Source: Escherichia phage vB_EcoS_WFI
Sequence record: NC_073058.1
Direction: 5' to 3' (one strand)
DNA: 45,536 nt
Every line of letters starts with the position of its first letter. Within the stretch, counting starts at the first letter, position 1. The notes below the pieces were generated by a model that saw nothing but the letters and a program-made list of their open reading frames with translations, had not been told where the DNA came from and did not search any database. The position numbers were made by a program, and so were the translations under genes. Positions 593-45,263 of this stretch are shown piece after piece.

Positions 593-862
593 ATGACCCG
601 TAGACGCGCAAAACAGCTTTCGTGGCATATCCCCCTGCATTGCATACGAATATGGGCTAAGAATGCGAATGAGGGCGATTCAGTGTTCTGGTGCTATCGC
701 GACGACGTTAAGCCGTTGACGCAGACTCGCTACTTGCACCAGTTCGCAGCACAACACGATTTCAGGGTGCGGACTTCCTTGCAACCAATGGGGATCCGTA
801 TTACATTACGCCGGAAGCCCGCCGTTGAGCGGGTAGGCAAACACTGGAGACTGAGCAAATGA
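593..862 (+). CDS. hypothetical protein (89 aa), member of a tandem paralog set
   Basis: RBS AAGAGG before ATG 593; C-terminus ERVGKHWRLSK resembles C-terminus of the next gene; ATGA overlap with next gene. Confidence 0.5.
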   Translation: MTRRRAKQLSWHIPLHCIRIWAKNANEGDSVFWCYRDDVKPLTQTRYLHQFAAQHDFRVRTSLQPMGIRITLRRKPAVERVGKHWRLSK

Positions 863-1203
863 TTCGAGTAACCGCACGCCACGAACAATCGGGGGCCACT
901 TACGATGTAATCGACGTTCGCGGCGCGTTCGTCATCTTCGGACGGGGTGACGACCGGCTGGCGCTGCCGATCGGTATGCTGAGCACATACGACTATTTCA
1001 AGCATAACGTCCGGTGTGGCGATGTGCTGCGCGATAAGCGCACCGGTGAGCTATGGACGGTGGCGAGTATTTGGGTGAAAGATAAACGGCAGCACACGTT
1101 ATTGCTCGCCCGCCCGGATTGCAAACAGCAAACTATTAACACTATTGGCCTGGTGGACTACACCCGCGTAGGCCGTAACGCTACCTGGAGACTGAGAAAA
1201 TGA
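859..1203 (+). CDS. hypothetical protein (114 aa), tandem paralog
   Basis: Shares GDVLRD-R-G-LW-V and GL-Y-RVGR motifs with the 1200..1832 product; ATGA start/stop overlaps on both sides. Confidence 0.6.
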   Translation: MIRVTARHEQSGATYDVIDVRGAFVIFGRGDDRLALPIGMLSTYDYFKHNVRCGDVLRDKRTGELWTVASIWVKDKRQHTLLLARPDCKQQTINTIGLVDYTRVGRNATWRLRK

Positions 1204-1832
1204 AATTACTATTCCGCCGTAACTCAGATGGCTATATCCTGAAGCCGATCCAGACCTTATCGAACTGGGTACGCCTCCACCACGTTGCAAGCGATAAAGT
1301 CTGGTGGGCGACTAAGGCAAAGCTGCCGGAGTACTACGAAATCCTCACACACGATATCGAGCGCGGCGATGTGCTGCGGGATATTCGCGACGGGCAATTG
1401 TGGGTCGTGGAATACACCTACCGGCACGGCCTGCGTATGACGTCCCGCAAGGATGGCGTAGCGGGCAACATGGTCAAGGGCATGACGTACTTCGGGCTAA
1501 TCAACTACGAACGAGTGGGCCGCAAGTACAGCAAGCGTGACCGCCAGCCACATGAGCGAGCGAACGCCATAGCTGACGTCGTCAACCGCGTAACGCGTGA
1601 GGTGGCGCAGAAGATGAGCGTTGAGTTCCGCAAATCCCAGCCAGCGTATGCGACCTACGACGCCCGCCAGGTGCAGGCCAGACTTAACAAGGCCACGCAT
1701 GAGATAATTAATCACGTTGATGCCGTGACGAATGCGCAGCGCATGGCCCGCGAATACGGCGTAGGATTCATCCGTGTCGAGCAAGACGGCAGCATGTCCG
1801 CTATAGACCCGCGCTCGGTAATACTGAAATGA
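1200..1832 (+). CDS. hypothetical protein (210 aa), N-terminal domain paralogous to 859..1203
   Basis: Motifs ERGDVLRDIRDGQLWVV and GLINYERVGRK align with the upstream gene; translationally coupled. Confidence 0.6.
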   Translation: MKLLFRRNSDGYILKPIQTLSNWVRLHHVASDKVWWATKAKLPEYYEILTHDIERGDVLRDIRDGQLWVVEYTYRHGLRMTSRKDGVAGNMVKGMTYFGLINYERVGRKYSKRDRQPHERANAIADVVNRVTREVAQKMSVEFRKSQPAYATYDARQVQARLNKATHEIINHVDAVTNAQRMAREYGVGFIRVEQDGSMSAIDPRSVILK

Positions 1833-1953
1833 GCGCGACTATCCGTGATATGCTTATGCATAACCGCTTTGAGATAGGCGGGCGAGTATTCTGCAATTAC
1901 TTCGTGGCGCGTGCTTGGGCGCGCCATATCGGAAAACCAGTAGGGGCAATACG

Positions 1954-2241
1954 ATGCTATACGATTTGATATTTTGGTTTGGTTTGGGGTGTGCGTCACT
2001 CTTTGTTGTGGTGCTGGCGCTGTTGGTATGGCTATTCCTGGTATGGCCCGCGGTGGAAGCAGCCAGCATTACCCGCATGACGTTCAAGATATACAAGCGC
2101 CGCGGCATATCGGAACACCCGACCAGGTTGCGCATGTGGTGGCTTTGGTATCTGGATATGATTGGCGGTCGAAGGTTTGAGGCCATCCGGTCATCCGGGT
2201 GGGAATGGAAAGGCGTCGGCAAGTGGTCCATTTTCGATTAA
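1954..2241 (+). CDS. small membrane protein (95 aa)
   Basis: ATG 1954 with GGGG 8 nt upstream; hydrophobic N-terminal segments (LIFWFGLGCASLFVVVLALLVWLFLVW); sits just before the lysis cassette. Confidence 0.45.
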   Translation: MLYDLIFWFGLGCASLFVVVLALLVWLFLVWPAVEAASITRMTFKIYKRRGISEHPTRLRMWWLWYLDMIGGRRFEAIRSSGWEWKGVGKWSIFD

Positions 2242-2260
2242 ATATGCAGTCGTGATATAG

Positions 2261-2293
2261 TCCCAGTGAGCTAAAACTTACTGGGACTTTTTT
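2261..2293 (+). terminator. stem-loop plus T-run abutting the holin start codon
   Basis: TCCCAGTGAG/CTTACTGGGA stem followed by CTTTTTT, then ATG at 2294. Confidence 0.45.
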
Positions 2294-2584
2294 ATGGATA
2301 AGCTAAACGAGTGGTTATTCGCCCTCGCGTGTCTTGCAGGTGGCTTCGTTGGCGCTCGCATTCACGGTGAGGCAACGAAAGGGCCGCTAAATTTTGTGTT
2401 GTTTATCGTGGTCGGCTTCTTGTGCGCCGTGTTTGGGGCACCAGCTATTGCCGAGTGGTTTAATCTAACCGGACCGAGAACTGTCGCCGGTCTTGGCTTC
2501 GTAACGGCAATCTTCTGGATGCCGGTCGCCGCCAGAATCCGTGAAGCAATTTCCTCGTTCCGTCTGCCGGGGAATGCAAAATGA
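2294..2584 (+). CDS. holin-like membrane protein (96 aa, about 3 TM segments)
   Basis: Three hydrophobic helices; immediately upstream of a second small membrane protein and the endolysin; ATGA overlap. Confidence 0.55.
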   Translation: MDKLNEWLFALACLAGGFVGARIHGEATKGPLNFVLFIVVGFLCAVFGAPAIAEWFNLTGPRTVAGLGFVTAIFWMPVAARIREAISSFRLPGNAK

Positions 2585-2820
2585 TTATCGCCATCCTGTT
2601 ATTAGTGATCGGGGCTTCGTCGCTGTATAACGTATACGCGCCATCCGTCCAGGATGGCATTTGCGGACGGGTGCTCTACCTGCTTACAGCAATGACCTGT
2701 ATTATTGGCCTGATGCAAACGGGGGACGTATCGAATACAGTCTGGTCCGTGCTAATCTGGCTATTCGCATTACGCACACTGCGTAATGCTGTTTTAAATG
2801 GGGTAAAACATGCGATTTAG
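2581..2820 (+). CDS. holin or antiholin-like membrane protein (79 aa, 2 TM segments)
   Basis: Two hydrophobic helices; overlaps the endolysin start. Confidence 0.5.
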   Translation: MIIAILLLVIGASSLYNVYAPSVQDGICGRVLYLLTAMTCIIGLMQTGDVSNTVWSVLIWLFALRTLRNAVLNGVKHAI

Positions 2821-3301
2821 TGACAACGGTCTAAGATTTACGGCAGCGTGGGAGTCGTTCAGCCCAGTGCCGTATTTCGCGACTAAGAAGGAGCAGGCCC
2901 GCGGCTTGTACACCTGGGGCTACGGTCATACTGGCACTAATCCGCCACAGAGCATTACCCGCGCGGAAGCGCTGGAGCTACTCAAGCGTGATGTGGCGTA
3001 TGCCGAGAACTGGGTGAACAAGTACGCACACCCGAGCATCAATCAGGCGCAATTCGACGCGCTGGTGGATCTGGTAATCAATGCCGGTCAAGGTCCGATC
3101 GTACCGGATAACATTGCCAATGACTTCGATGACGCGGTGCGCCTGGGTGATTGGGCCAAAGTCCGTGCTACGCTGCCGCAGTTCCGCAAGCAAGGCGGTG
3201 AAGTGCTCAAGGGCCTGGTACGTCGTGCAATCGGCAGACAGGCGCTATTCGATGGTAAGCAGTGGGACGTTGCCGAGAAAATCGGTCGTAACGCGGCATA
3301 A
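2810..3301 (+). CDS. endolysin, GH24 phage lysozyme-like
   Basis: Motif E...YTWGYGHTG typical of T4/lambda-type lysozymes; 163 aa; follows holin candidates. Confidence 0.75.
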   Translation: MRFSDNGLRFTAAWESFSPVPYFATKKEQARGLYTWGYGHTGTNPPQSITRAEALELLKRDVAYAENWVNKYAHPSINQAQFDALVDLVINAGQGPIVPDNIANDFDDAVRLGDWAKVRATLPQFRKQGGEVLKGLVRRAIGRQALFDGKQWDVAEKIGRNAA

Positions 3302-3317
3302 TAAGAGGAAACACAGT

Positions 3318-3731
3318 ATGTTAAAAAGTATTCTTGATCATAACGCCGACGCGCTCGCCGCGCTGGCTAAAACCGAAGACCCCGGCGCACGCGCTATTAT
3401 TGCGGACACTATCAGCCATGCGGGCGTCTTTGACGCGAAGCTGCCTAGCGTGCCGGAAAGTAAGCCGGTGGCAAGTGCGACCATAACCATCACACCGGAA
3501 TCCGCCGCAGTTGGTGCGAAGGCCACCGCTTCGGTTGAGGTCCAGCCACCCGACGCGACTAACAAGGCAGGGAAGTGGGTGTCGTCGAATCCCGCCTGCG
3601 CGGCAATCGATCAGACTACCGGCGAAATCACAGCCCAAACGGCGGGTAGCGCCCACATCTTTTGGGTGGCCTCCGATGGTAGCGGGGCGATGGCGTCCGC
3701 CATCTTCACCGTAACGGGGGCGGAAGAATAA
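3318..3731 (+). CDS. Ig-like (Big_2-type) domain protein, 137 aa
   Basis: ATG 3318 with RBS AAGAGGAAA; C-terminal half Ala/Thr/Ser/Val-rich, resembling bacterial Ig-like domains; the 3081 start in the ORF track was rejected. Confidence 0.55.
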   Translation: MLKSILDHNADALAALAKTEDPGARAIIADTISHAGVFDAKLPSVPESKPVASATITITPESAAVGAKATASVEVQPPDATNKAGKWVSSNPACAAIDQTTGEITAQTAGSAHIFWVASDGSGAMASAIFTVTGAEE

Positions 3732-3737
3732 AACCAC

Positions 3738-3764
3738 AAGCCCGGTTAATTCCGGGCTTTTTAT
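3738..3764 (+). terminator. rho-independent terminator
   Basis: AAGCCCGGTTAATTCCGGGCTT hairpin followed by TTTT. Confidence 0.6.
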
Positions 3765-3828
3765 TGCTTGACTTGCAACCAACATAAGGGCCATACTGCA
3801 ACCAATCAACGAGAAGGAGTAACACACT

Positions 3829-3909
3829 ATGACACGCAATGATATTTATGTACTGGCAATCTGGTCCGCCGCCGCATTCATCGGTATGGTTATTTGCGAA
3901 TTGCTATAG
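3829..3909 (+). CDS. possible 26-aa hydrophobic peptide
   Basis: Strong RBS GAAGGAG 9 nt upstream of ATG; MTRNDIYVLAIWSAAAFIGMVICELL; not in the ORF track because of size. Confidence 0.3.
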   Translation: MTRNDIYVLAIWSAAAFIGMVICELL

Positions 3910-3970
3910 CCCGCCGCCATAAGGACCGTGGTATATTGTCCCCGGACCCATAATCAGGAAGTAAATTAAT

Positions 3971-5113
3971 ATGCACCCTCAAACTAAAATTACCGACGAG
4001 CAATTGATCGCTGAATTGCAATCTGGCACTACCTCGAAAGATATTGCGAAGAAATACGGCATTGCCCTTCGAAATGTCTATATGCGCAAAGCCCGCCTGT
4101 CGAAGAAAGGCATTGGACACGGCAACGATGCTGTAATCCGCAAGCGCGTTGCCGATGGCTTCGGCGTTAAGCGTGTATCAGCCCTGGTGCGCGGCAATGG
4201 CGAAGAGGTCATGTCCTGGGTCATCACCGAGCAGGACAAGGAGCGCCAACTTGAAGCAATGCGCGCCGTTGTCGAGGGTATGAACAGCGAAATCACACCG
4301 GCAGCACCAGTGAGCGCTCCGCCAGTCCCGATCCAGGCGCTTGACCTGCTTAACCTGTATACCGTGTCGGACTTCCACCTGGGAATGTTGGCATGGGGCG
4401 AGGAGACTGGCGAAGACTGGGATATGGCAATCGCCGAAGACCTTTTCTACCGCTGGTTTGTCGAAGCCTTCGCCCGCGCGCCGGACGCTGGCACTGCCGT
4501 AATCAATATCCTCGGTGATATGGCCCACTTTGACAGCCTCGACGCCGTCACGCCAGCCAGTGGTCACGTACTGGACGCAGATACCCGCTACCAGAAACTG
4601 GTCCGCTACATGATTCGCATGGTGCGCAACGTGGTTGAACTGGCGCTGCAAAAACACCATAAGGTCAAACTGTTAATCGTCCAGGGTAATCATGATGAGT
4701 CCGGTATGATTTGGCTGGCTGAGATGTTCAATACCCTGTACGAGAACGAGCCGCGCGTTGATGTGGACACGTCCCCGGACGTTTACAAAATGGTGCAGCA
4801 CGGTAAAACAACGCTGTTCTTCCACCACGGACACAAAGCACGCTTTGACGCCATCGAACCGGTCATGATTTCTAAATTCAGACAGGCTTTCGGGTCCAGT
4901 GAGTACAGCTACGCGCACGTGGGCCACTTGCACCACCAGAAGATTGTTGAATCCCGCAACATGATTGTTGAACAGCACCGGACCCTTGCCGCGAAAGACG
5001 CATATGCGAGCCGCGGCGGTTGGATGTCTGGTCGTAGTGCTAACGTCATCACCTATAGCGCCAACTACGGCGAAGTAGCGCGCTTAACCATTAGCCCGGA
5101 AATGTTGAAATGA
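3971..5113 (+). CDS. calcineurin-like metallophosphoesterase with N-terminal HTH-like domain
   Basis: Phosphoesterase motif series DFHLG, GDMAHFD, QGNHDE, FHHGHK, HVGHLHH; N-terminal SKDIAKKYGIALRNVYMRKARL resembles an HTH. Confidence 0.6.
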   Translation: MHPQTKITDEQLIAELQSGTTSKDIAKKYGIALRNVYMRKARLSKKGIGHGNDAVIRKRVADGFGVKRVSALVRGNGEEVMSWVITEQDKERQLEAMRAVVEGMNSEITPAAPVSAPPVPIQALDLLNLYTVSDFHLGMLAWGEETGEDWDMAIAEDLFYRWFVEAFARAPDAGTAVINILGDMAHFDSLDAVTPASGHVLDADTRYQKLVRYMIRMVRNVVELALQKHHKVKLLIVQGNHDESGMIWLAEMFNTLYENEPRVDVDTSPDVYKMVQHGKTTLFFHHGHKARFDAIEPVMISKFRQAFGSSEYSYAHVGHLHHQKIVESRNMIVEQHRTLAAKDAYASRGGWMSGRSANVITYSANYGEVARLTISPEMLK

Positions 5114-11207: not shown

Positions 11208-11356
11208 TTGTGTGTCCTCATTGTTGGTGTGCAACCAATATAGTGCAACCAATACCTGGATTGCAAGCGAATTTTGCGATTATTTTTATCGCTGATAATA
11301 TTAGAGGCGTGAAGTCGAGCGGGTGGCCCGCTCTGCCACAATCCCAGGGGGATAGC

Positions 11357-27365: not shown

Positions 27366-29408
27366 ATGGCAGCGGGTACACTATCCGTAACGAATAACAG
27401 CACCGCGGTGACTGGAGACGGCACAACGCTTACCGCGCTGAAGGCGGGCGACTTCCTGTCGCTGGTAGTAGGGCAAGTCCCTTACACTATTGCTATTGCA
27501 TCCATTGAGAGCGACACCGCGCTTACACTGGCGCTGCCGTTCGATGGCCCAACGGCAACCGGCCTCGCATGGGATAGCGTGGCGCGCGATACCATGTCCC
27601 TAGCAACGATGGGTGTAACCGTCCAGGCGCAGAAAGCACTACGCTTGATGATCGCGGATGAAAACAACTGGCGTGCAATCTTCGGCGACGCTGAAGAAGT
27701 CACGGTAACGCTGCCGAACGGGCAAGTTATGCAGGGAATGTCATGGGGCTACCTGTCATCCTTGTTAAAGGAAGTAGACCCCGTCGAAATGCGCGACCTG
27801 CAACAACAAGCCGCCGCATCGGAAGCCGCCGCGCTGGTGTCACGCAATGAGGCCGAAGGCTTCAAGAACGATGCCAATACCATCAAGACGCAGACCGACC
27901 AAATCAAGGCTGACACGCAGGCAATCCACGACGCCACCAATACGATCAAGACGCAGACCGACCAGATTAAGACCGATACGCAGGCTATCAAGGACCAGAC
28001 CAACCAGATTAAGACTGATACTGGCGTTATTCGCGATGAAGCCAATACTGCGAAGACTGACGCGCAAGCCGCCAGCACTGCCGCGCAGGGATTTCGCGAT
28101 CAGGCCGAAGAATGGGCGCAAAGCGTAAACGCGGATAATCTGCTAACTAAATCAGGAAACCTGGCAGGCGTTGCCGATGTGCAGACGTCGCGAACCAACC
28201 TCGAACTGGGGGAGGGTAACGAGCCGATTTTCAAGGGCGCCCTTGCTGTTAAATCGGCCCCCGACACCGTATCGGCACAGGGCGGAATGTTCCAGTCTAA
28301 GCTGCGGAATAGCGACGGCGACGATGTGGTTACAACGCAAAGCTACGCGGAAACACAACTTGGGGTCGGAAAGCACACGATCGGCGTAATCACGCCTTCG
28401 GGGGCACATTACTATCAACTCGACGTCGAAGGTAACTTTAACGGATTCAAGCGCCTGTCATCCGCGGCGGGTGGCGAAGTTCTCCTAAACGGCGTCGATA
28501 GTAACACCGTGCAGCTACTGTCGCTTAACCCACCAAAGCCGAACGACTACACCGGATTCACGCGGTATAACTGGCAAAATAGCGCGGTGTTTACCGGGCC
28601 GATTCGTCAGGGAGGGACGGGGCTTGAAGCCTATGAGGTCTACGTCCTGAATGCTGGCGTGGCGGAATGGCGCTACCGGTTTAGACCCGATGGAAAGATG
28701 TCCGCCAGACGACTTATCGCCGAAGGTTTCCAGACCGGCTGGGACCAGCCTAACAACTACGGGGACAGCGGTGTGTGGCTATCTGACGTCGGAAATAACG
28801 ACGGCGGCTGGGTTCCTGCAATCTCCTGGCGGTCCCAATCAACCGGCGGTTACCCTATCCGCGCCACGTGGGGGCTTATCTCTCAGGGCGCGGCGAACTG
28901 GCCCCGTGCGGCATTGCGATGCCGAGGGGATGGCGAAAACTGGACAAACTTCGAGTTCGTCGTTAACAGTTGCGATATCCAGGTCAGCGGTACATTCGGC
29001 GCGTACACGTTCTCCAAAGCGCCTACGTCCGACCGAGACCTGAAGCACGATATTAAGTACACGGAAGGGAAAGAAAGCTACGATCGCGTGATGCAGTGGC
29101 TTCCCACAATGTTTAAGTATAAAGGGTCGGAAATCCAGCGCTACGGCCTTATCGCGCAGGACCTGGTGAAAATCGATCCGCAATACGTGAAGATTATTCC
29201 AGGCGCACTTAAAAACCCGGACCTCGTAGGGGCTGAAGGATTCAAAGCCGAAGACGGCGACTACTACGACGACACGCTGGCACTTGACAGCAACGTCATG
29301 TTAACAGATATGGCGTGCGCGATGGTCTTCATGGGGCGTAAAGTGGAAGATATGCAGAAAGAACTGGAGGAATTGAAAGCTGCCGTAGCGGCACTGACCA
29401 AAGCATAA
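27366..29408 (+). CDS. tail fiber protein with C-terminal S74-type intramolecular chaperone domain
   Basis: N-terminal conserved domain; 21-aa tandem repeats TIKTQTDQIK(A/T)DTQAI; C-terminal motif TSDRDLKHDIKY...GLIAQDLVKIDPQYV typical of autocleaving chaperone domains. Confidence 0.75.
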   Translation: MAAGTLSVTNNSTAVTGDGTTLTALKAGDFLSLVVGQVPYTIAIASIESDTALTLALPFDGPTATGLAWDSVARDTMSLATMGVTVQAQKALRLMIADENNWRAIFGDAEEVTVTLPNGQVMQGMSWGYLSSLLKEVDPVEMRDLQQQAAASEAAALVSRNEAEGFKNDANTIKTQTDQIKADTQAIHDATNTIKTQTDQIKTDTQAIKDQTNQIKTDTGVIRDEANTAKTDAQAASTAAQGFRDQAEEWAQSVNADNLLTKSGNLAGVADVQTSRTNLELGEGNEPIFKGALAVKSAPDTVSAQGGMFQSKLRNSDGDDVVTTQSYAETQLGVGKHTIGVITPSGAHYYQLDVEGNFNGFKRLSSAAGGEVLLNGVDSNTVQLLSLNPPKPNDYTGFTRYNWQNSAVFTGPIRQGGTGLEAYEVYVLNAGVAEWRYRFRPDGKMSARRLIAEGFQTGWDQPNNYGDSGVWLSDVGNNDGGWVPAISWRSQSTGGYPIRATWGLISQGAANWPRAALRCRGDGENWTNFEFVVNSCDIQVSGTFGAYTFSKAPTSDRDLKHDIKYTEGKESYDRVMQWLPTMFKYKGSEIQRYGLIAQDLVKIDPQYVKIIPGALKNPDLVGAEGFKAEDGDYYDDTLALDSNVMLTDMACAMVFMGRKVEDMQKELEELKAAVAALTKA

Positions 29409-29412
29409 TTAG

Positions 29413-29436
29413 AAGGGGCCATACGGCCCCTTTTTT
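29413..29436. terminator. terminator between convergent tail fiber and leftward genes
   Basis: AAGGGGCCATACGGCCCCTT hairpin followed by TTTTTT. Confidence 0.6.
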
Positions 29437-30010
29437 AGTTTGAGTTTTCCCAATCCATTTTGCGCCGCACCAGCGGACTCTCATAATATTCCTTGCCTTC
29501 TACTTCCACCAACGGCCAATCGTTCACGATTACGTACGGTTCCGCAATATCCTCAATCACGCCGTGCGCGCTATGTTGTCCGAACGATACACCCACCAGG
29601 ATAACACCGGCAACTCGACGGGTTAGATACTCGCGAGCGCAACGGGCTTCTACCAGTCCGCGACGGATGCCGCTGGTGGCTTTGACCTCGTAGGTCCAGA
29701 CGGCGTCAATCATGTGCTCACGGAAGTCGGGGCCGGACTTAACCTTGCGCTTACCGACCATGATAATATCGCCGCGGTCGATAGTATTGGCGCTAAACAG
29801 GCCGGTACGCATAAGTAAGCCTTGCGGGATACAACTACGCCCGCCTGCCTGCCCTTCAAGGTACATGCCCGCAAACATCTCGCCCAGCACACCGACAAGA
29901 CGGCTTTGCTTGCAAGCGTCAGACTTTAAGCGCCACTGGTCAAACTCGACGCTTGCTAACATTGCCGCTATGTGGAATTGTTTACCTGTTATTTCATATT
30001 CGCCGTACAT
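29435..30010 (-). CDS. hypothetical protein, possible PD-(D/E)xK nuclease fold
   Basis: 191 aa; motif GDIIMVGKRK...IDAVWTYEVKA resembles D...E-x-K; weak. Confidence 0.4.
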   Translation of the reverse strand: MYGEYEITGKQFHIAAMLASVEFDQWRLKSDACKQSRLVGVLGEMFAGMYLEGQAGGRSCIPQGLLMRTGLFSANTIDRGDIIMVGKRKVKSGPDFREHMIDAVWTYEVKATSGIRRGLVEARCAREYLTRRVAGVILVGVSFGQHSAHGVIEDIAEPYVIVNDWPLVEVEGKEYYESPLVRRKMDWENSN

Positions 30011-30052
30011 TGTGAAGTCCTCATTGCTGCGGGCCGAAGCCCGCTATTAGAA

Positions 30053-30575
30053 TTATTTAAGTGCGCCAGTCACCAGTGTTTTTTCCATATTGCGGAAGTC
30101 TTCCGGCGTCATGAGTATTTTGGACCCGTCCTCGCCAGTGAGCACGACCATAGGCTGGACGTCCTGGGCTACGACACCGAAATTGGCGGCGTTAACCATC
30201 TTGCCCGCAGATGACGAAGGATGCCAGGTACCGGCAATGTCAAGGGGCCAACCCTTGAGGCTGTCGAATTGCGATGCCGTTGTATCGATCTGAATCTCAT
30301 CATGCACGGTCATGTGCGACTCACCCAGTAGTGCGGCATACGCAACCAGGTCAACAATATTGTCTTCCTGGTGCTTACGGTGCTGGCGCACCAGCTTCAG
30401 GCAGATCAGGAAGGTCCAGGCTTCTTGCTCTGTAAGGTCGCGACCGGTAAGCGCGTTTAAACACGGCAGCGATTTGCTTCGCGCTGCGTTCTTCTTTCGC
30501 GTTGTCATAGCCGTTCTCTTTCCCGCGCTGTTCCATAGTGGTGGCGGCGTTCTTGCAGTATTCAAATGCTTTCAT
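30053..30575 (-). CDS. hypothetical protein, reading frame apparently interrupted (+1 shift near 30455-30465)
   Basis: Two overlapping ORFs (30375..30575 and 30053..30565); protein-like sequence switches frame at GTG TTT AAA C. Confidence 0.4.
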
Positions 30576-30636
30576 GATGTTTTCCTTTTAGTGGGGGCCG
30601 GATTGCCCCCGACGCGTTAACTATAGTGCAACCAAC

Positions 30637-31107
30637 CTATTGGTTGCAAGTAAATTTTGCTACGTTTATAGAATAAATTTTCGGGACCAGATCGCCGCAC
30701 GCGCGACGTATGGCTTCGATATTCTTCGGGCAGTCTTCAATGATGACCAGTTCGGACACGTCCGCATAGCACACCATTTTGAACACCGCGCACGCCTTAA
30801 ATTCCGGCGGTGGGGTGTCATCCAGCATGTGGCGCATGAACAACCGGCCTGTCGGGAATACTTTCAACTGTTCAGCGGTAGTCTCCCAGCATTCGCGCTG
30901 CCGGTTAGTCAGATACGCTATCTCGAAGCCTTGCTCTTTGTACATGCGCAGCAACGGCAGCATGTCCATGTTCAGGTCTTCGCGGACGTGCGCTTTGTGC
31001 CACTTCGCCCAAAAGGTTGATTTGGTTTTTATGCCGGGCACCAGGTCAGCACGCGCATCACTTGAACCATTAATAACGCCATCCAGATCACAAATCAGTA
31101 GTTTCAT
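30637..31107 (-). CDS. HAD-superfamily phosphatase (polynucleotide 3'-phosphatase or nucleotidase-like)
   Basis: N-terminal motif LICDLDGVI (DxDGT-type). Confidence 0.55.
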   Translation of the reverse strand: MKLLICDLDGVINGSSDARADLVPGIKTKSTFWAKWHKAHVREDLNMDMLPLLRMYKEQGFEIAYLTNRQRECWETTAEQLKVFPTGRLFMRHMLDDTPPPEFKACAVFKMVCYADVSELVIIEDCPKNIEAIRRACGDLVPKIYSINVAKFTCNQ

Positions 31108-31328
31108 TTTAAGCTCTCAATAAGGGTGTGACGGGCGCTTCGCGCCGTAAAGGAGTTGCATACAAAATGGCAACGCTTGGTTATGACAAGCCAACCGGTA
31201 AGGTCAAGGCCCATGATGGATTCGGGTCTGGATACGCGCATCACACGGTCGCGGCGCGGGTCGATGAAGAAGTCCCATTGCATTTGGTCTACTACCGCAG
31301 GGTCGCGGTCAACGATTAAGATATTCAT
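31104..31328 (-). CDS. hypothetical protein (74 aa)
   Basis: ORF track; ATGA overlap with downstream gene. Confidence 0.4.
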   Translation of the reverse strand: MNILIVDRDPAVVDQMQWDFFIDPRRDRVMRVSRPESIMGLDLTGWLVITKRCHFVCNSFTARSARHTLIESLK

Positions 31329-31794
31329 GTAGTTCTCTCTCGCTCATTATTTCAATTTGTGCGCTGCCGATGGGCGGCGCTTCGTCAAATATTATCAATT
31401 GCTGGCACTTGTTATTGCTCGGCCCAACTTCGCCGGTCACAGCATGGATGAATCGCACACGCCAGTCCAGAAGAATTATCATGTTTGCAGTCTTCCGGGC
31501 CAGCCTCGCCCACTTCGTCGATGTGTCTTGATTCAGTAGCATTACCGTCCGGCGTCCGTGCGCAGCACACTCGACCCACGGCAGCGGATCGGAGTACGGC
31601 GGGTTGCACCACTTCCACCCTTTCAACTCTGACCAGTCCGCATCAAGCGCGCTATGCTCTGCCGTGAAGTAGCGCGGTAGCAGGTGATTGGCGTCGCTTG
31701 CAGCCATATCGTAACGAAATCGGTACTTACGGCGCAGCGGTTTAAATAAAGCTGGCGGAGTGCGCCAGCTATCCTTTTGCTCACTCTTCTGCAT
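31309..31794 (-). CDS. phage-type DNA N6-adenine methyltransferase (Dam-like)
   Basis: Motifs WRTPPALF, DMAASDANH, and NPPYS. Confidence 0.8.
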   Translation of the reverse strand: MQKSEQKDSWRTPPALFKPLRRKYRFRYDMAASDANHLLPRYFTAEHSALDADWSELKGWKWCNPPYSDPLPWVECAAHGRRTVMLLNQDTSTKWARLARKTANMIILLDWRVRFIHAVTGEVGPSNNKCQQLIIFDEAPPIGSAQIEIMSERELHEYLNR

Positions 31795-32245
31795 GGTCGG
31801 TGTCTATCGCGTAAAGGGCAATCTTTTCCCCTTTCTTCAGGATTCGCTGCAATCGCTGCGTCTCCGACACCCCCAAAGGGCGCGCGTCCGGGTAGAAGTT
31901 GCCGTTTGTTGGGTGTCGCCACGCCATAAGCACCAGGTCTTTACGGGCGACCGCAGACTGGCGGCCCTTCGGACGCACGTACGCCTCGGCACGTTTGCAA
32001 TGCTCACGCAGACCTTCAGCCGTCATGCGATTAAGCACCGCGGTGGTTGTGTATCCGGTGCGCTGCATAATCCCCATCAGTTCGAACAGCAGTTCGAAGC
32101 GCTCCTCTAACTCCTTGCGCACCTTCTCCTCACCTTCATAGCTCGCAAGGTAGGTGTCTGCCAGCGCGTTCGCGCGTTCGGCCTGTTCGCGGGCTTCGAG
32201 GCACTGCGCGGCCCAGTAATTTTTCTCTTCTTGTAAAATTTTCAT
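31781..32245 (-). CDS. hypothetical protein (154 aa)
   Basis: ORF track; overlaps neighbours. Confidence 0.5.
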   Translation of the reverse strand: MKILQEEKNYWAAQCLEAREQAERANALADTYLASYEGEEKVRKELEERFELLFELMGIMQRTGYTTTAVLNRMTAEGLREHCKRAEAYVRPKGRQSAVARKDLVLMAWRHPTNGNFYPDARPLGVSETQRLQRILKKGEKIALYAIDTDHAEE

Positions 32246-32488
32246 TTATTTAAGCTCCGTAGTGCGGATTTCATCGCGTGGGATAAATTTGCCGTCCATC
32301 TCTACCCAGCAAACACCGTAGCGCCATTGGGTATTACGGCCTGTTTGCTCGGCGTACACGGTCTGGCATTCGTAGCGGTCGACGTAGTAAATAGCCGTAG
32401 AAGGGATACCAATACAACCGGCAAACATGAGGGTTAGTATTACCCAAAATCGAAGGTCGCCATCGTAGTCGAAAAACAATGATTTCAT
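32246..32488 (-). CDS. small membrane protein (80 aa)
   Basis: ATG 32488 with RBS GGAGA; one hydrophobic helix. Confidence 0.4.
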   Translation of the reverse strand: MKSLFFDYDGDLRFWVILTLMFAGCIGIPSTAIYYVDRYECQTVYAEQTGRNTQWRYGVCWVEMDGKFIPRDEIRTTELK

Positions 32489-32568
32489 CGTAATGTCTCC
32501 AGGTATTAAAAAGGGCGTCCAACCGGACACCCTTAAGATAATGCAACCAATCTAATTACGCAACCAAT

Positions 32569-32892
32569 TTATTCATAAAAATTTGGGTCGCGCGCTACGT
32601 CTACCAGATACAAGTTGCTCATGCGGTTGCCGTAGTGCCCTGGCGTGCGCTGGCGGCACACAACGGCGAAGCCTGGAGGGATTGTATTGCCAGTCTCGAT
32701 AATCCACGCCACGCGCGCGCCAGACAGCGTCTTGCCGTTGCATTCGATACGAGTACCGCCATCAGCGGTGTTAAGGTTGCCAATCTTGCAGCCGGTGGAC
32801 TTCAGACGGATGACGCCGGTTTTGCTGTCGTAGGTGAATAACTGGTTAGTCATTGCAACCGAGAAGTCGATGGCTTCGAATGTAGTATTCAT
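32569..32892 (-). CDS. hypothetical protein, possibly degenerate HNH/AP2-like DNA-binding fold
   Basis: Pattern G.IRLKS...NGK...ARVAW...G.IP.G resembles HNH_3-type proteins but catalytic His positions are unclear. Confidence 0.3.
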   Translation of the reverse strand: MNTTFEAIDFSVAMTNQLFTYDSKTGVIRLKSTGCKIGNLNTADGGTRIECNGKTLSGARVAWIIETGNTIPPGFAVVCRQRTPGHYGNRMSNLYLVDVARDPNFYE

Positions 32893-33584
32893 TTTAAATT
32901 TTCCTCATTGACTGCTATTGCGAAGCCGCGCGGAGTGAGCGACCGGATTAATTTGGTGCGGGCAGATTTGCCACCGAGGCGACTATACTGCTTCGAGTAC
33001 CCTTTTTCAACGAATACCGGCTTTTTCTCCGGCATACGAAAGCCATTGCCGGTCCATAAACAGGTCAGCTTTGGATATGAATCGCGGTCGTTGATGTATT
33101 CCGGGAACAACGGATGTACGTCATCCTCCGGCAGATAGCCGCCATACTCCCACGGATCAAACGAGTGGTCTGGCTTGCGCCACTGGGTGGATAGCACACT
33201 GCGCGGATTCTCAATCATATATGGCACTTCAAAGAAGTCACCCAGGTAAGCGGCAATCTTCGCGGTGCGCACTGCCTTAAGCTGAAAGGCGGGGTCTTTC
33301 GCACGCTTGCACGGGAAAGCTGGCGCACCGCTCACCGCCAGATCCGTACACGGCGGAAACGCGTAGATAATATCCGGCGTGCCGAAATCGCCATTCATCG
33401 CGCGGTCCACGAAGTCCAGATCGATAAACTCGTTACGATAGCGGATACCGCGACCATAAATCCGGTAGTCAAGGTAAGACCCGTGATCGGCTTCCGAGTA
33501 GTTGAAACAGTAGCATTTATGCCCCATCTCGGCAGCGCGCTCTATCATCAAGCCGCTGCCGTCAAATAATGACCAGATAATCAC
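32889..33584 (-). CDS. short C5-cytosine methyltransferase-like protein (no obvious target-recognition domain)
   Basis: Motif I-like LFDGSG, PC motif FPPCTD, ENV-like MIENP; only 231 aa. Confidence 0.5.
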   Translation of the reverse strand: MIIWSLFDGSGLMIERAAEMGHKCYCFNYSEADHGSYLDYRIYGRGIRYRNEFIDLDFVDRAMNGDFGTPDIIYAFPPCTDLAVSGAPAFPCKRAKDPAFQLKAVRTAKIAAYLGDFFEVPYMIENPRSVLSTQWRKPDHSFDPWEYGGYLPEDDVHPLFPEYINDRDSYPKLTCLWTGNGFRMPEKKPVFVEKGYSKQYSRLGGKSARTKLIRSLTPRGFAIAVNEENLK

Positions 33585-35005
33585 TTGCGCACCTTCTTAG
33601 CTTTCATGTATTCCATCAAGTCGTCCTGGATGTCGCGCTTACCATCGCGGCGGTCCGCCACCAGTTCGTCCAGTGTCCCGCGTGCCTGGATAATATAGAC
33701 GAATACCGGTCGAGGGTGCCCGGCTTGCATCTGGCGAACTGGCCCGATACGCTCCACGATCTGCGCAAAGTGCTCATAGTTCCACGTATCCGAGAAGATA
33801 GCCAGGTGATGACCGCCGTCCTGCAAGTTAAGGCCGTGACCAGCCGATGCCGGGTGTGCGAACATGATGGGAATCTCGCCCCTGTTCCACGCTTCCATAT
33901 CCTTATTGCCCTGCTTACCCTTACCCATCGCAACGCCGTGGGGAAACTTCTTCTTCAGACGTGCCAGGTCGTGCTTGTACTGGTACGCAACGAGCAACGG
34001 CGCTCCGTTCAACTCCTCTACGATACTTTCCAGCGCGTCCAGCTTGGCGTCGTGAATCTTCTCCCACTCGTCGGTCCGCTCTCCGTCTTCGTCCACCTTA
34101 TACACGGCACCGGATGCAAGCTGAAGGCACTTGATGGTCTTAGCCGCAGCGTTCGCCGCTTCCACTGTTCCGCTTTCCAGTTCGGCAAATAGCTCACTCT
34201 CAAACTGGTCATAAATCTTGCGGGCTTTCTTCGGCAGGTCCACGACAACCGGCGTGTAGATTGGCTTGTCACATCCGAAGTATTCAGCCGCGTCCACGGT
34301 AAGGGATACATCGGACAGGCGCTGTTGGATCTCCTTCTCGGAGTTCTTTAGCGGGGCGTGCTGCATAGTGAAGCTGCCTGGCTTAACAGGCTTGCTAATA
34401 AACCAGCGATCGGTGAATGCCTTATAGCTACTGCCGAGGCGTTCGCCACCGTCGACAAACCACGTCTGACCCCATAAGTCTTTTAGCCCGTTTGGCGCTG
34501 GTGTGCCGGTAAGGTTAATCCAGCGCTTGACGTGTTTATGTGCAATCGCTGCCAGTGCGCGGGCGCGCTTGCTCCCCTGCTTGCTACGATAGCCTTTCAG
34601 CTTAGTCGATTCATCGGCAACAACCACCGTAAAGGGCCACGCATCGCCGTAATAGTCGACCAGCCACTCAACCACATCGTAGTTAACACAAACCACGTTA
34701 GCGTCGCTCTCAAGCGCGGCTATGCGGTCCTTCTCTGGTCCAGTGCCGTCTACGACCAGCAGGGATGAGAACCGCCATTTCTCCTGTTCCGGGGGCCATG
34801 TGCCGGAGGCAACGCGTAGCGGGGCCAGCACCAGTACGCGGTCCTCCTGGTTGGACAGGATGCCAGTCTGGAACATTTTGTTTAGCGCCCACATAGTCGC
34901 GCCGGTTTTACCGGACCCCATTGTCGCCCAAATATTGCAGCGCTCATGCTTGAGAATAAACGCGGTTATCAATTTCTGATATTCGCGACGTCGGAATCGT
35001 GCCAT
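33581..35005 (-). CDS. superfamily-2 DNA helicase
   Basis: Walker A TMGSGKTG and DEAD-like VVADESTK; start at 35005 with RBS. Confidence 0.75.
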   Translation of the reverse strand: MARFRRREYQKLITAFILKHERCNIWATMGSGKTGATMWALNKMFQTGILSNQEDRVLVLAPLRVASGTWPPEQEKWRFSSLLVVDGTGPEKDRIAALESDANVVCVNYDVVEWLVDYYGDAWPFTVVVADESTKLKGYRSKQGSKRARALAAIAHKHVKRWINLTGTPAPNGLKDLWGQTWFVDGGERLGSSYKAFTDRWFISKPVKPGSFTMQHAPLKNSEKEIQQRLSDVSLTVDAAEYFGCDKPIYTPVVVDLPKKARKIYDQFESELFAELESGTVEAANAAAKTIKCLQLASGAVYKVDEDGERTDEWEKIHDAKLDALESIVEELNGAPLLVAYQYKHDLARLKKKFPHGVAMGKGKQGNKDMEAWNRGEIPIMFAHPASAGHGLNLQDGGHHLAIFSDTWNYEHFAQIVERIGPVRQMQAGHPRPVFVYIIQARGTLDELVADRRDGKRDIQDDLMEYMKAKKVRK

Positions 35006-35009
35006 ATCT

Positions 35010-35234
35010 TTATTCCGCCTTTTTCCAGACTTCGGTTTCACTGTTCCAATTCCTCTTTGTGGCGTCGTAGTTGGTGGCGTGTCCAATGTGCACACCGGTC
35101 GCGCGGAAGCTCTTAAACTTCTGCCAGCACACTGTCAACGGCAGCGGGTAATTCATGCCTGCGATAAACCATACGCGATCGCCAGGTTTGCACTCTCCCA
35201 GCTTGGTGAGTCGGTAATGTTCTTTCATCGTCAT
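35010..35234 (-). CDS. hypothetical protein (74 aa)
   Basis: ORF track; tight spacing. Confidence 0.4.
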   Translation of the reverse strand: MTMKEHYRLTKLGECKPGDRVWFIAGMNYPLPLTVCWQKFKSFRATGVHIGHATNYDATKRNWNSETEVWKKAE

Positions 35235-35270
35235 GCCTCCAAAAATGGCGGGACAAGCCCGCCGTATTGA

Positions 35271-35444
35271 TTATTCTTGTTCTGCGCGATAGCGGCGCTG
35301 CCGATCACGTTCTTTCTTATTGCGGCACGATTTGCACTCGGCCCGATGCCCGTCTGGACTGCGCGCAGTCTTTCCGGTGTATTTGTGGAACTGGGATAGC
35401 GGCTTGATGCATCCGCAATTACTACAACGTTTTTCTTCAATCAT
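35271..35444 (-). CDS. small zinc-ribbon protein (57 aa)
   Basis: CSNCGC...CKSCRNKKER; RBS GAGGA. Confidence 0.45.
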   Translation of the reverse strand: MIEEKRCSNCGCIKPLSQFHKYTGKTARSPDGHRAECKSCRNKKERDRQRRYRAEQE

Positions 35445-35484
35445 TTCTAAAATCCTCGATAGGGCTAACCGGCACACTATACCG

Positions 35485-35763
35485 CTACGCGACCAATTCA
35501 GCAACCAATAAATCGCAGTCGGCTATGTTGTCAATAACGCGAACGTCAGCACCGCGGCGGGCCATTCGCTCATGTTCTCGCACCTGGTGCGGCTTCGGTT
35601 TTCCTCCGGGGCGCTTCACTTCGACGAATACTATGATGCCGTTGATGATAATAATCAGGTCGGGCGCACCTGCGCGCCCCTCCCATGCCAGCTTGCGGCA
35701 GAATCCGCCAACCTCTTTCACCCGTCGCATCAGGTGACTTTGAATATTGCCTTCTGGTGTCAT
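35485..35763 (-). CDS. VRR-NUC domain nuclease
   Basis: Motifs PDLIII..G.IVFVEVKRPGGK. Confidence 0.6.
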   Translation of the reverse strand: MTPEGNIQSHLMRRVKEVGGFCRKLAWEGRAGAPDLIIIINGIIVFVEVKRPGGKPKPHQVREHERMARRGADVRVIDNIADCDLLVAELVA

Positions 35764-35951
35764 TTGGTTTGCAACTCCACGTTACGCAGACGTAGATCTA
35801 CCGGTATGTCAGATCTACCGGTTAGCGCCAGCGCCAGGTTTTCAGGCGTGACAAGTGCCGTGATGGTCTTGCCACGTTCCAGTCTAAGGACGATGCGAAT
35901 CTCGTCATCGTCCGTCGCGCCAGCGCGCATTATGCTTAATTCTGCTTTCAT
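35760..35951 (-). CDS. hypothetical protein (63 aa)
   Basis: ORF track, start trimmed to ATG 35951. Confidence 0.35.
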   Translation of the reverse strand: MKAELSIMRAGATDDDEIRIVLRLERGKTITALVTPENLALALTGRSDIPVDLRLRNVELQTK

Positions 35952-39261: not shown

Positions 39262-39350
39262 TTCTCAATTCCTCATTTCGCATGTATCGGGGTTATTGTG
39301 AGCCACCCCGTTCGGCTTGGTTGCTAATTTACTTGGTTGCGCCTAAGCGG

Positions 39351-45157: not shown

Positions 45158-45263
45158 ATTTTGCGCGCATTGGTTGCCATTTTGAGTGTTTTTAGCTGGT
45201 CGCATTGGTTGCCGTGTAGTGTGAATATAGTGAATAGTTATGCATTTTTATTGCATAAAGTAA

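Follow-up and report, generated by a model that had tools for sequence, protein, structure and literature searches.

A putative compact cytosine-C5 methyltransferase and an orphan Dam methylase among the replication genes of Escherichia phage vB_EcoS_WFI

Escherichia phage vB_EcoS_WFI (sequence record NC_073058.1) carries two DNA methyltransferase genes on the minus strand of the 45,536-nucleotide stretch analysed here, which we call the window. One encodes a Dam-type enzyme of 161 amino acids (aa); the other encodes a 231-aa protein that, by analogy with a characterised homologue, is very probably an active orphan DNA methyltransferase forming 5-methylcytosine (5mC), and an unusually compact one. 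The pair are ordinary, already known core genes of the genus Dhillonvirus, both orphan methyltransferases. The cytosine methylase has no separate target-recognition domain (TRD).

A compact cytosine methyltransferase

What this analysis itself shows of the 231-aa protein is its fold, its motifs, the family to which it belongs and its place in the genome. Its gene and main features are as follows.

32889-33584, minus strand: 231-aa short (TRD-less) cytosine-C5 DNA methyltransferase, Dcm-like, with a GTG start; matches phrog_757 "DNA methyltransferase" (E = 1.2e-81)
33552-33566, minus strand: motif I, FDGSG, the S-adenosylmethionine (SAM)-binding loop, residues 7-11; invariant in 34 homologues
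33348-33356, minus strand: motif IV, PPC, residues 77-79, with the catalytic C79; invariant, and equivalent to C82 of the K42 Dcm described below
33204-33212, minus strand: motif VI, ENP, residues 125-127; invariant, E125 being equivalent to E128 of K42 Dcm
32979-33044, minus strand: short variable loop at the TRD position, residues 181-202; secondary structure from a predicted model

The three motifs named in the original prediction were all located exactly. In an alignment of 34 homologues (57-84% identity), out of 2882 proteins returned from a large protein collection, residues F7, G9, S10, G11, P77, P78, C79, E125, N126 and P127 are unchanged, and because of this invariance the motifs are not a matter of chance; LGGK and the C-terminal IRSLTPRG are invariant too. 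Weak matches to PF00145 were obtained for 22 of the 34 homologues (best E = 1.3e-6). The AlphaFold2 model of the protein (predicted local distance difference test score, pLDDT, 91; predicted template-modelling score 0.89) has the fold of C5 methyltransferases.

It had also been proposed that the protein has no room for a normal TRD, and the model bears this out. Between the strand at residues 174-179 and the C-terminal helices lie some 25-35 residues, mostly loop (DSSP on the model), after which comes the conserved C-terminal helix SLTPRGFA. The size was judged from the secondary structure of the model, as a profile alignment to E. coli Dcm (hhalign) aligned motif IV alone. For comparison, M.HhaI has a separate TRD of about 80-90 residues between motifs VIII and IX. 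Shortness is a property of the whole family. The best 120 of the 2882 proteins are about 225-250 aa long throughout, and a profile search of 1.84 billion representatives gave 1952 clusters (184 at E <= 1e-30), nearly all of 200-260 aa and matched end to end. By tblastn, the gene was found in 1508 phage records, from Dhillonvirus, Drexlerviridae, rV5-like myophages, Klebsiella siphophages and others.

A few family members of 400-560 aa (P0245, P0267, P0268, P0272) join the short methyltransferase module to extra N- or C-terminal sequence. Such fused members may reveal partners of the minimal enzyme.

We infer the activity of the 231-aa protein itself from a homologue in phage K42 (Drexlerviridae, Hanrivervirus), which is 95.4% identical to KarlJaspers/Bas06 and was described in a preprint (bioRxiv 10.1101/2023.08.16.553469) published as Wang et al., Cell Rep 2024 43:114857 (per PMC13158370). 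In that study, the lesions of K42 escapers of retron Ec86 lay in a "Dcm" gene of 711 bp, K42 Dcm was toxic on expression solely when the retron was present, and a short "Dcm" was encoded by 34 of the 35 Ec86-sensitive phages (bioRxiv 10.1101/2023.08.16.553469). Expression of K42 Dcm also led to more 5mC in the multicopy single-stranded DNA (msDNA) of the retron, the product co-eluting with a 5mC standard in mass spectrometry coupled to liquid chromatography (LC-MS), and a C82A/E128A/K175A/K176A mutant was inactive, msDNA 5mC not being raised (bioRxiv 10.1101/2023.08.16.553469). The product of the KarlJaspers 711-bp gene (236 aa) is 53% identical to the 231-aa protein over residues 2-231 (BLASTP, E = 1e-84), and C79, E125 and K172 align exactly with C82, E128 and K175 of K42. 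Both 5mC formation and the triggering of the retron are experimental results for this 53%-identical homologue, not for the Dhillonvirus protein. The fold, the invariance of the catalytic residues and the activity seen in experiments on the homologue thus agree with the minimal methylase first suggested from the DNA, a reading that experiment on the homologue supports and that is not new.

Several points weigh against this reading or against the CCWGG specificity that goes with it. The 231-aa protein has no match of its own in Pfam (PF00145 included, E <= 0.1) or NCBIfam, and PDB sequences searched with the protein and with the family profile yielded no relevant solved structure. K176 of K42 corresponds to Leu173, in a column that varies within the family. 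Residues 181-202 are the segment least conserved with KarlJaspers Dcm, 3 of 22 positions being identical (14%) versus 57-76% in the core. The hhalign comparison of the family profile with E. coli Dcm covered 25 columns around motif IV alone, with a probability of 0.3%, and the phage enzyme is therefore not an orthologue of E. coli Dcm. For the K42 enzyme, CCWGG specificity was carried over from E. coli Dcm, with msDNA motif mutants as its sole backing, and was not mapped (bioRxiv 10.1101/2023.08.16.553469). Our literature search found no activity, specificity or virion-DNA modification data for Dhillonvirus, and no direct methylome data for Dhillonvirus or Drexlerviridae virions. Finally, methylase genes and resistance to restriction were not linked in any simple way in BASEL phenotyping of related Drexlerviridae (PMC8594841).

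Target specificity

By analogy with K42, CCWGG may be proposed as the target of the 231-aa protein with moderate confidence. The genome contains 162 CCWGG and 143 GATC sites. GATC is mildly under-represented (ratio 0.69 under a maximal-order Markov model). The phage avoids neither CCWGG nor GATC, which is compatible with self-methylation and does not establish specificity. An apparent 2.2-fold enrichment of CCWGG relative to dinucleotide shuffles (z about 10) was gone under the maximal-order Markov model (ratio 0.96); the usage of CCAG/CTGG tetramers accounts for it, and it is no methylase signal.

It is possible, although we hold it doubtful, that the 231-aa protein is an active C5 methyltransferase with a target other than CCWGG, for example a di- or trinucleotide, so that the Dhillonvirus clade may differ from Hanrivervirus (K42). 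The poorly conserved loop at residues 181-202, the absence of detectable similarity to the E. coli Dcm TRD and the indirect assignment of the K42 specificity all speak for such a target. So does the presence in the family of at least two loop types, GYSxQ and DNPGW, the latter in 4 of the 34 homologues. Moreover, msDNA 5mC was low without the phage enzyme even though the MG1655 host was dcm+ (bioRxiv 10.1101/2023.08.16.553469). The phage enzyme therefore does something that the host Dcm does not. The host nuclease McrBC prefers R-mC sites. Given this preference, the fact that McrBC+ K-12 MG1655 was the isolation host of related phages and supports their growth (bioRxiv 10.1101/2020.01.19.911818) would argue against dense purine-mC methylation. 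Defence against K42, furthermore, was abolished when one or the other C in the CCTGG of the msDNA stem was mutated (bioRxiv 10.1101/2023.08.16.553469), which also argues against a different target.

One might speculate, more tentatively still, that the short Dhillonvirus enzyme reads DNA through loops unlike known recognition domains, with a target that differs both from CCWGG and from that of its Hanrivervirus relative. If so, phrog_757 would comprise minimal, loop-programmable cytosine methylases whose specificities decide which defences are evaded or triggered.

Two further readings concern the reaction itself. That the 231-aa protein is catalytically dead or acts on something other than DNA, as a Dnmt2-like RNA m5C enzyme or a DNA-binding decoy would, is very improbable. 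The lack of a Pfam match for the protein itself and of a recognisable classical QxRxR motif VIII in its sequence would fit such a role, but the catalytic and SAM-binding residues are all invariant across a very large family, and the DNA methylation by the homologue in vivo depends on its Cys (bioRxiv 10.1101/2023.08.16.553469). Hardly credible at all are the cytosine hypermodification route once envisaged for this protein, with the protein as its first step, and the use of a non-SAM cofactor such as carboxy-SAM: a HAD phosphatase-like gene and several unknown open reading frames (ORFs) do lie close by, but 8yf3 scores no better than ordinary C5 methyltransferases, the homologue product co-eluted with the 5mC standard in LC-MS (bioRxiv 10.1101/2023.08.16.553469), many unrelated phage backgrounds carry the same short methyltransferase but lack these neighbours, and the partner enzymes are absent from the annotation of the colinear phage Haito_Bas83, whose 71 annotated genes include no hydroxymethylase, TET/JBP dioxygenase, glycosyl-, amino- or other transferase, amidotransferase or nucleotide kinase, the only sizeable segment specific to the window being in the tail-fibre region (28114-29406).

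The Dam methylase

The 161-aa protein (31309-31794, minus strand) had been called a clear Dam-type methyltransferase, and rightly so. It matches PF05869 at E = 9.4e-36 (123.5 bits, gathering cut-off 28.1) and phrog_111 at E = 1.8e-54, and its NPPY motif occupies residues 64-67 (31594-31605, minus strand). Against the TIGR01712 equivalog it scores 85.9 bits, slightly below the cut-off of 97.05. No solved homologue was found by sequence search, and a PADLOC scan gave nothing beyond generic orphan-methyltransferase matches for Dam. On these family matches the protein is to be classed as a standard orphan phage Dam. The phage Dam family, including the enzymes of T1 and HP1 and VT2 Dam of Stx phage, is GATC-specific, and GATC would most probably be the target here as well, judging from the characterised family members.

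Gene order and neighbouring genes

All the ORFs named in the original prediction are present on the minus strand where they had been placed. In order of transcription, the genes and sites around the compact methyltransferase gene are as follows.

33581-35095, minus strand: SNF2-family helicase (PF00176, E = 8.2e-11; phrog_62, E = 2.2e-157), whose stop overlaps the start of the 231-aa gene
32569-32892, minus strand: 107-aa protein, HNH-related, restricted to the Dhillonvirus/Eiauvirus lineage (phrog_99, E = 3.7e-15)
32543-32568, minus strand: two direct copies of ATTGGTTGC, a motif paired in intergenic gaps genome-wide (repeat scan)
32513-32532, minus strand: terminator-like hairpin GGGUGUCCGGUUGGACGCCC followed by UUUUU (T-run), between the 107-aa and 80-aa genes (dG -17.5 kcal/mol, z -3.96)
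32246-32488, minus strand: 80-aa protein with one hydrophobic segment (WVILTLMFAGCIGIPSTAI), putatively single-pass membrane (phrog_18961; hydropathy)
31781-32245, minus strand: 154-aa protein with a coiled-coil-like N-terminus (phrog_10530)
31309-31794, minus strand: 161-aa phage Dam-type N6-adenine DNA methyltransferase (PF05869, phrog_111)
31104-31328, minus strand: 74-aa protein (phrog_10685)
30637-31107, minus strand: 156-aa HAD-superfamily phosphatase-like protein (phrog_415, DLDGV motif I)

Most gene junctions overlap or abut (helicase/231-aa gene, GTGA; 231-aa/107-aa, ATGA; 74-aa/HAD, ATGA). The idea of a dedicated DNA-modification cluster was not supported. The methylase genes are part of the leftward replication operon, with the hairpin and paired copies of the 8-mer TTGGTTGC between them, and the three ORFs that separate them bear no modification-related signature. 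Within this operon, the two genes probably do not form one unit.

The 80-nucleotide gap between the 107-aa and 80-aa genes (32489-32568) contains both ATTGGTTGC copies and the hairpin with its T-run. For the 80-aa gene we prefer the ATG start, which has GGAG upstream, because the hairpin overlaps the alternative GTG at 32530 that would give a 94-aa version. The 8-mer TTGGTTGC occurs 20 times in the genome, on both strands, against about 1.4 copies expected for a random 8-mer, and exact ATTGGTTGC occurs 15 times. Most TTGGTTGC copies are intergenic and come in pairs 14-35 bp apart (for example 30628/30640 and 35489/35501), with single copies elsewhere. The sites are:

40-79, 3775-3806, 11231-11253, 30628-30647, 32543-32568, 35489-35509, 39316-39340 and 45169-45212: TTGGTTGC sites, on both strands

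One pair forms a perfect palindrome, TGCAACCAACCTATTGGTTGCA, at 30627-30648. From its distribution, the TTGGTTGC/ATTGGTTGC motif is probably a genus-specific element, a candidate operator or promoter, that punctuates operons. In a consensus scan for sigma-70 promoters and terminators, sites were no more frequent than in shuffles.

Among the intervening ORFs, the 107-aa protein had been credited with a possible HNH-like fold. The relationship is supported by the phrog_99 match, but there is no Pfam match even at E = 10, and the AlphaFold model, built on a six-sequence alignment, is unusable (pLDDT 57). Canonical H-N-H spacing is absent from the sequence VVCRQRTPGHYGNRMSNL, and likewise from a 151-aa homologue in Edwardsiella phage eiAU-183 (41% identity), which has a weak I-HmuI NUMOD-like match. 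Homologues fall into five protein clusters only. The gene is present in 160 phage records, that is in essentially every Dhillonvirus, mostly at >=90% identity, a distribution unlike the sporadic one of mobile homing endonucleases. We regard its product as putatively related to the DNA-binding N-terminal region of I-HmuI-type HNH homing endonucleases, in a domesticated or degenerate form.

The 154-aa protein has no Pfam or NCBIfam match. The label "DNA ligase" attached to phrog_10530 was rejected for it: there is no ligase family match and no KxDG nucleotidyl-transferase motif, and the protein is far too short. Downstream of Dam, the proposed HAD phosphatase is indeed HAD-like by phrog_415 (E = 1.1e-36) and by its DxDGV motif (DLDGV, residues 7-11, 31075-31089); its matches to Pfam HAD models are all sub-threshold, with Acid_phosphat_B at E = 2e-5.

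Relation to sequenced Dhillonvirus genomes

The window is a complete, circularly permuted genome of Dhillonvirus (HK578-like E. coli siphophages), with 96-98% identity to sequenced phages. Megablast of positions 29400-35800 returned 159 phage records, nearly all Escherichia or Shigella Dhillonvirus (HK578-like) siphophages, the closest being Escherichia phage vB_EcoS-22664B1 (97.8% nucleotide identity, full length). Both methylase genes are already named as Dam-like or Dcm-like methyltransferases in many deposited Dhillonvirus genomes. In Oekolampad/Bas18 and Haito_Bas83, the names in use for genes of the region are "Dam-like N6-adenine methyltransferase", "Dcm-like C5 cytosine methyltransferase", "putative homing endonuclease" and "putative phosphatase"; such names are likewise in use for phage Ioannina (PMC11430396).

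By local BLAST, the whole window is colinear with Haito_Bas83. The segment at 28114-29406, just upstream of the leftward operon, is the sole sizeable one without a match in that phage, and its position in the tail-fibre region is consistent with host-range swapping. Upstream of the helicase gene, two further small genes lie on the minus strand. The one at 35271-35443 encodes a small Cys-rich (zinc-ribbon-like) protein labelled "Lar-like restriction alleviation protein" in Haito_Bas83. The product of the one at 35485-35763 has 92 aa; the WF5505 record lists it as "VRR-NUC domain protein", Haito_Bas83 as "endonuclease". Should the Lar-like name prove right, the phage would have a further anti-restriction function beside the methylases.

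Over the whole window, several words are strongly under-represented under the maximal-order Markov model, namely GAACC/GGTTC (0.21), GAGCC/GGCTC (0.27), CTAG (0.18), CTTGG/CCAAG (0.37) and CACAG/CTGTG (0.43). The joint depletion of CTAG and CTWGG resembles the enterobacterial Vsr-type signature, and in that of GARCC a restriction or defence motif might be avoided.

Proposed mechanism and significance

If the 231-aa protein is, as we propose, an active 5mC methyltransferase, the phage would express two orphan DNA methyltransferases, with no cognate nuclease, together with its replication genes. Dam would methylate adenine at N6 with SAM as donor, GATC being the most probable target. The 231-aa enzyme would have a DNMT3-like minimal architecture, in which Cys79 (PPC) attacks C6 of a flipped-out cytosine, Glu125 (ENP) protonates N3, and the FDGSG loop together with the C-terminal RGF helix holds SAM, a methyl group then being added at C5 to give 5mC. 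Target recognition would fall to conserved loops that are short (roughly residues 144-173 and 181-207), in place of a separate recognition domain. The likely benefit would be pre-emptive protection of phage sites against type II restriction where the host has no Dam and Dcm or differs in them, an anti-restriction role that, like the CCWGG and GATC specificity, is inferred. The cost would be that the cytosine methylase is sensed by retron Ec86/Eco1 through msDNA methylation.

The significance as it stands is small: both are core genes of a coliphage genus that has been well sampled, they are annotated already, and the unusual one has a characterised homologue. Presence of the short methylase could nevertheless help to predict which phages trigger retron Ec86/Eco1, and a naturally minimal (about 230 aa), widespread C5-methyltransferase scaffold is of possible practical interest for enzyme engineering. 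The label "Dcm-like" hides that kinship with E. coli Dcm stops at the catalytic core.

Comparison with known systems

E. coli Dcm, which methylates CCWGG and gave the phage gene its GenBank name "Dcm-like", is expected to share the chemistry of the 231-aa protein. It is, however, a 472-aa, Vsr-paired enzyme, whereas the phage enzyme is half that size and TRD-less, and the phage genome has no vsr (Haito_Bas83 annotation). The catalytic domains of DNMT3A and DNMT3B show 12-16% sequence identity to the 231-aa protein. They target CpG. The phage protein is without regulatory domains and gives no sign of DNMT3L-like partners or oligomerisation. Within the phage Dam family (PF05869/TIGR01712), the Dam of the window shares the strong Pfam match, the NPPY motif and the orphan state, but falls below the TIGR01712 cut-off.

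The K42/KarlJaspers enzyme has in common with the 231-aa protein phrog_757 membership, length class (231 versus 236 aa) and the state of a stand-alone phage gene near a SNF2-type helicase. It differs in the loop at the TRD position, which is unrelated in sequence (14% identity), and comes from another phage genus with other neighbours. Phage eiAU-183 shares a syntenic module with the window, comprising the SNF2-type helicase, the homologue of the 107-aa protein, a C5 methyltransferase and a PF05869 Dam. Here, the order differs, the three small ORFs are absent, and the C5 methyltransferase, which adjoins Dam and comes after the helicase and the homologue of the 107-aa protein, is a normal-sized PF00145 enzyme of 330 aa; the module spans 852-4382 (L007), with this normal-sized enzyme in place of the compact one of Dhillonvirus. 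In Hanrivervirus aaroes, the short methylase again lies near a helicase, among small unknown genes, and Dam is not adjacent. As compared across Hanrivervirus aaroes and eiAU-183, what recurs is a link to the replication/helicase module, and not to a modification pathway.

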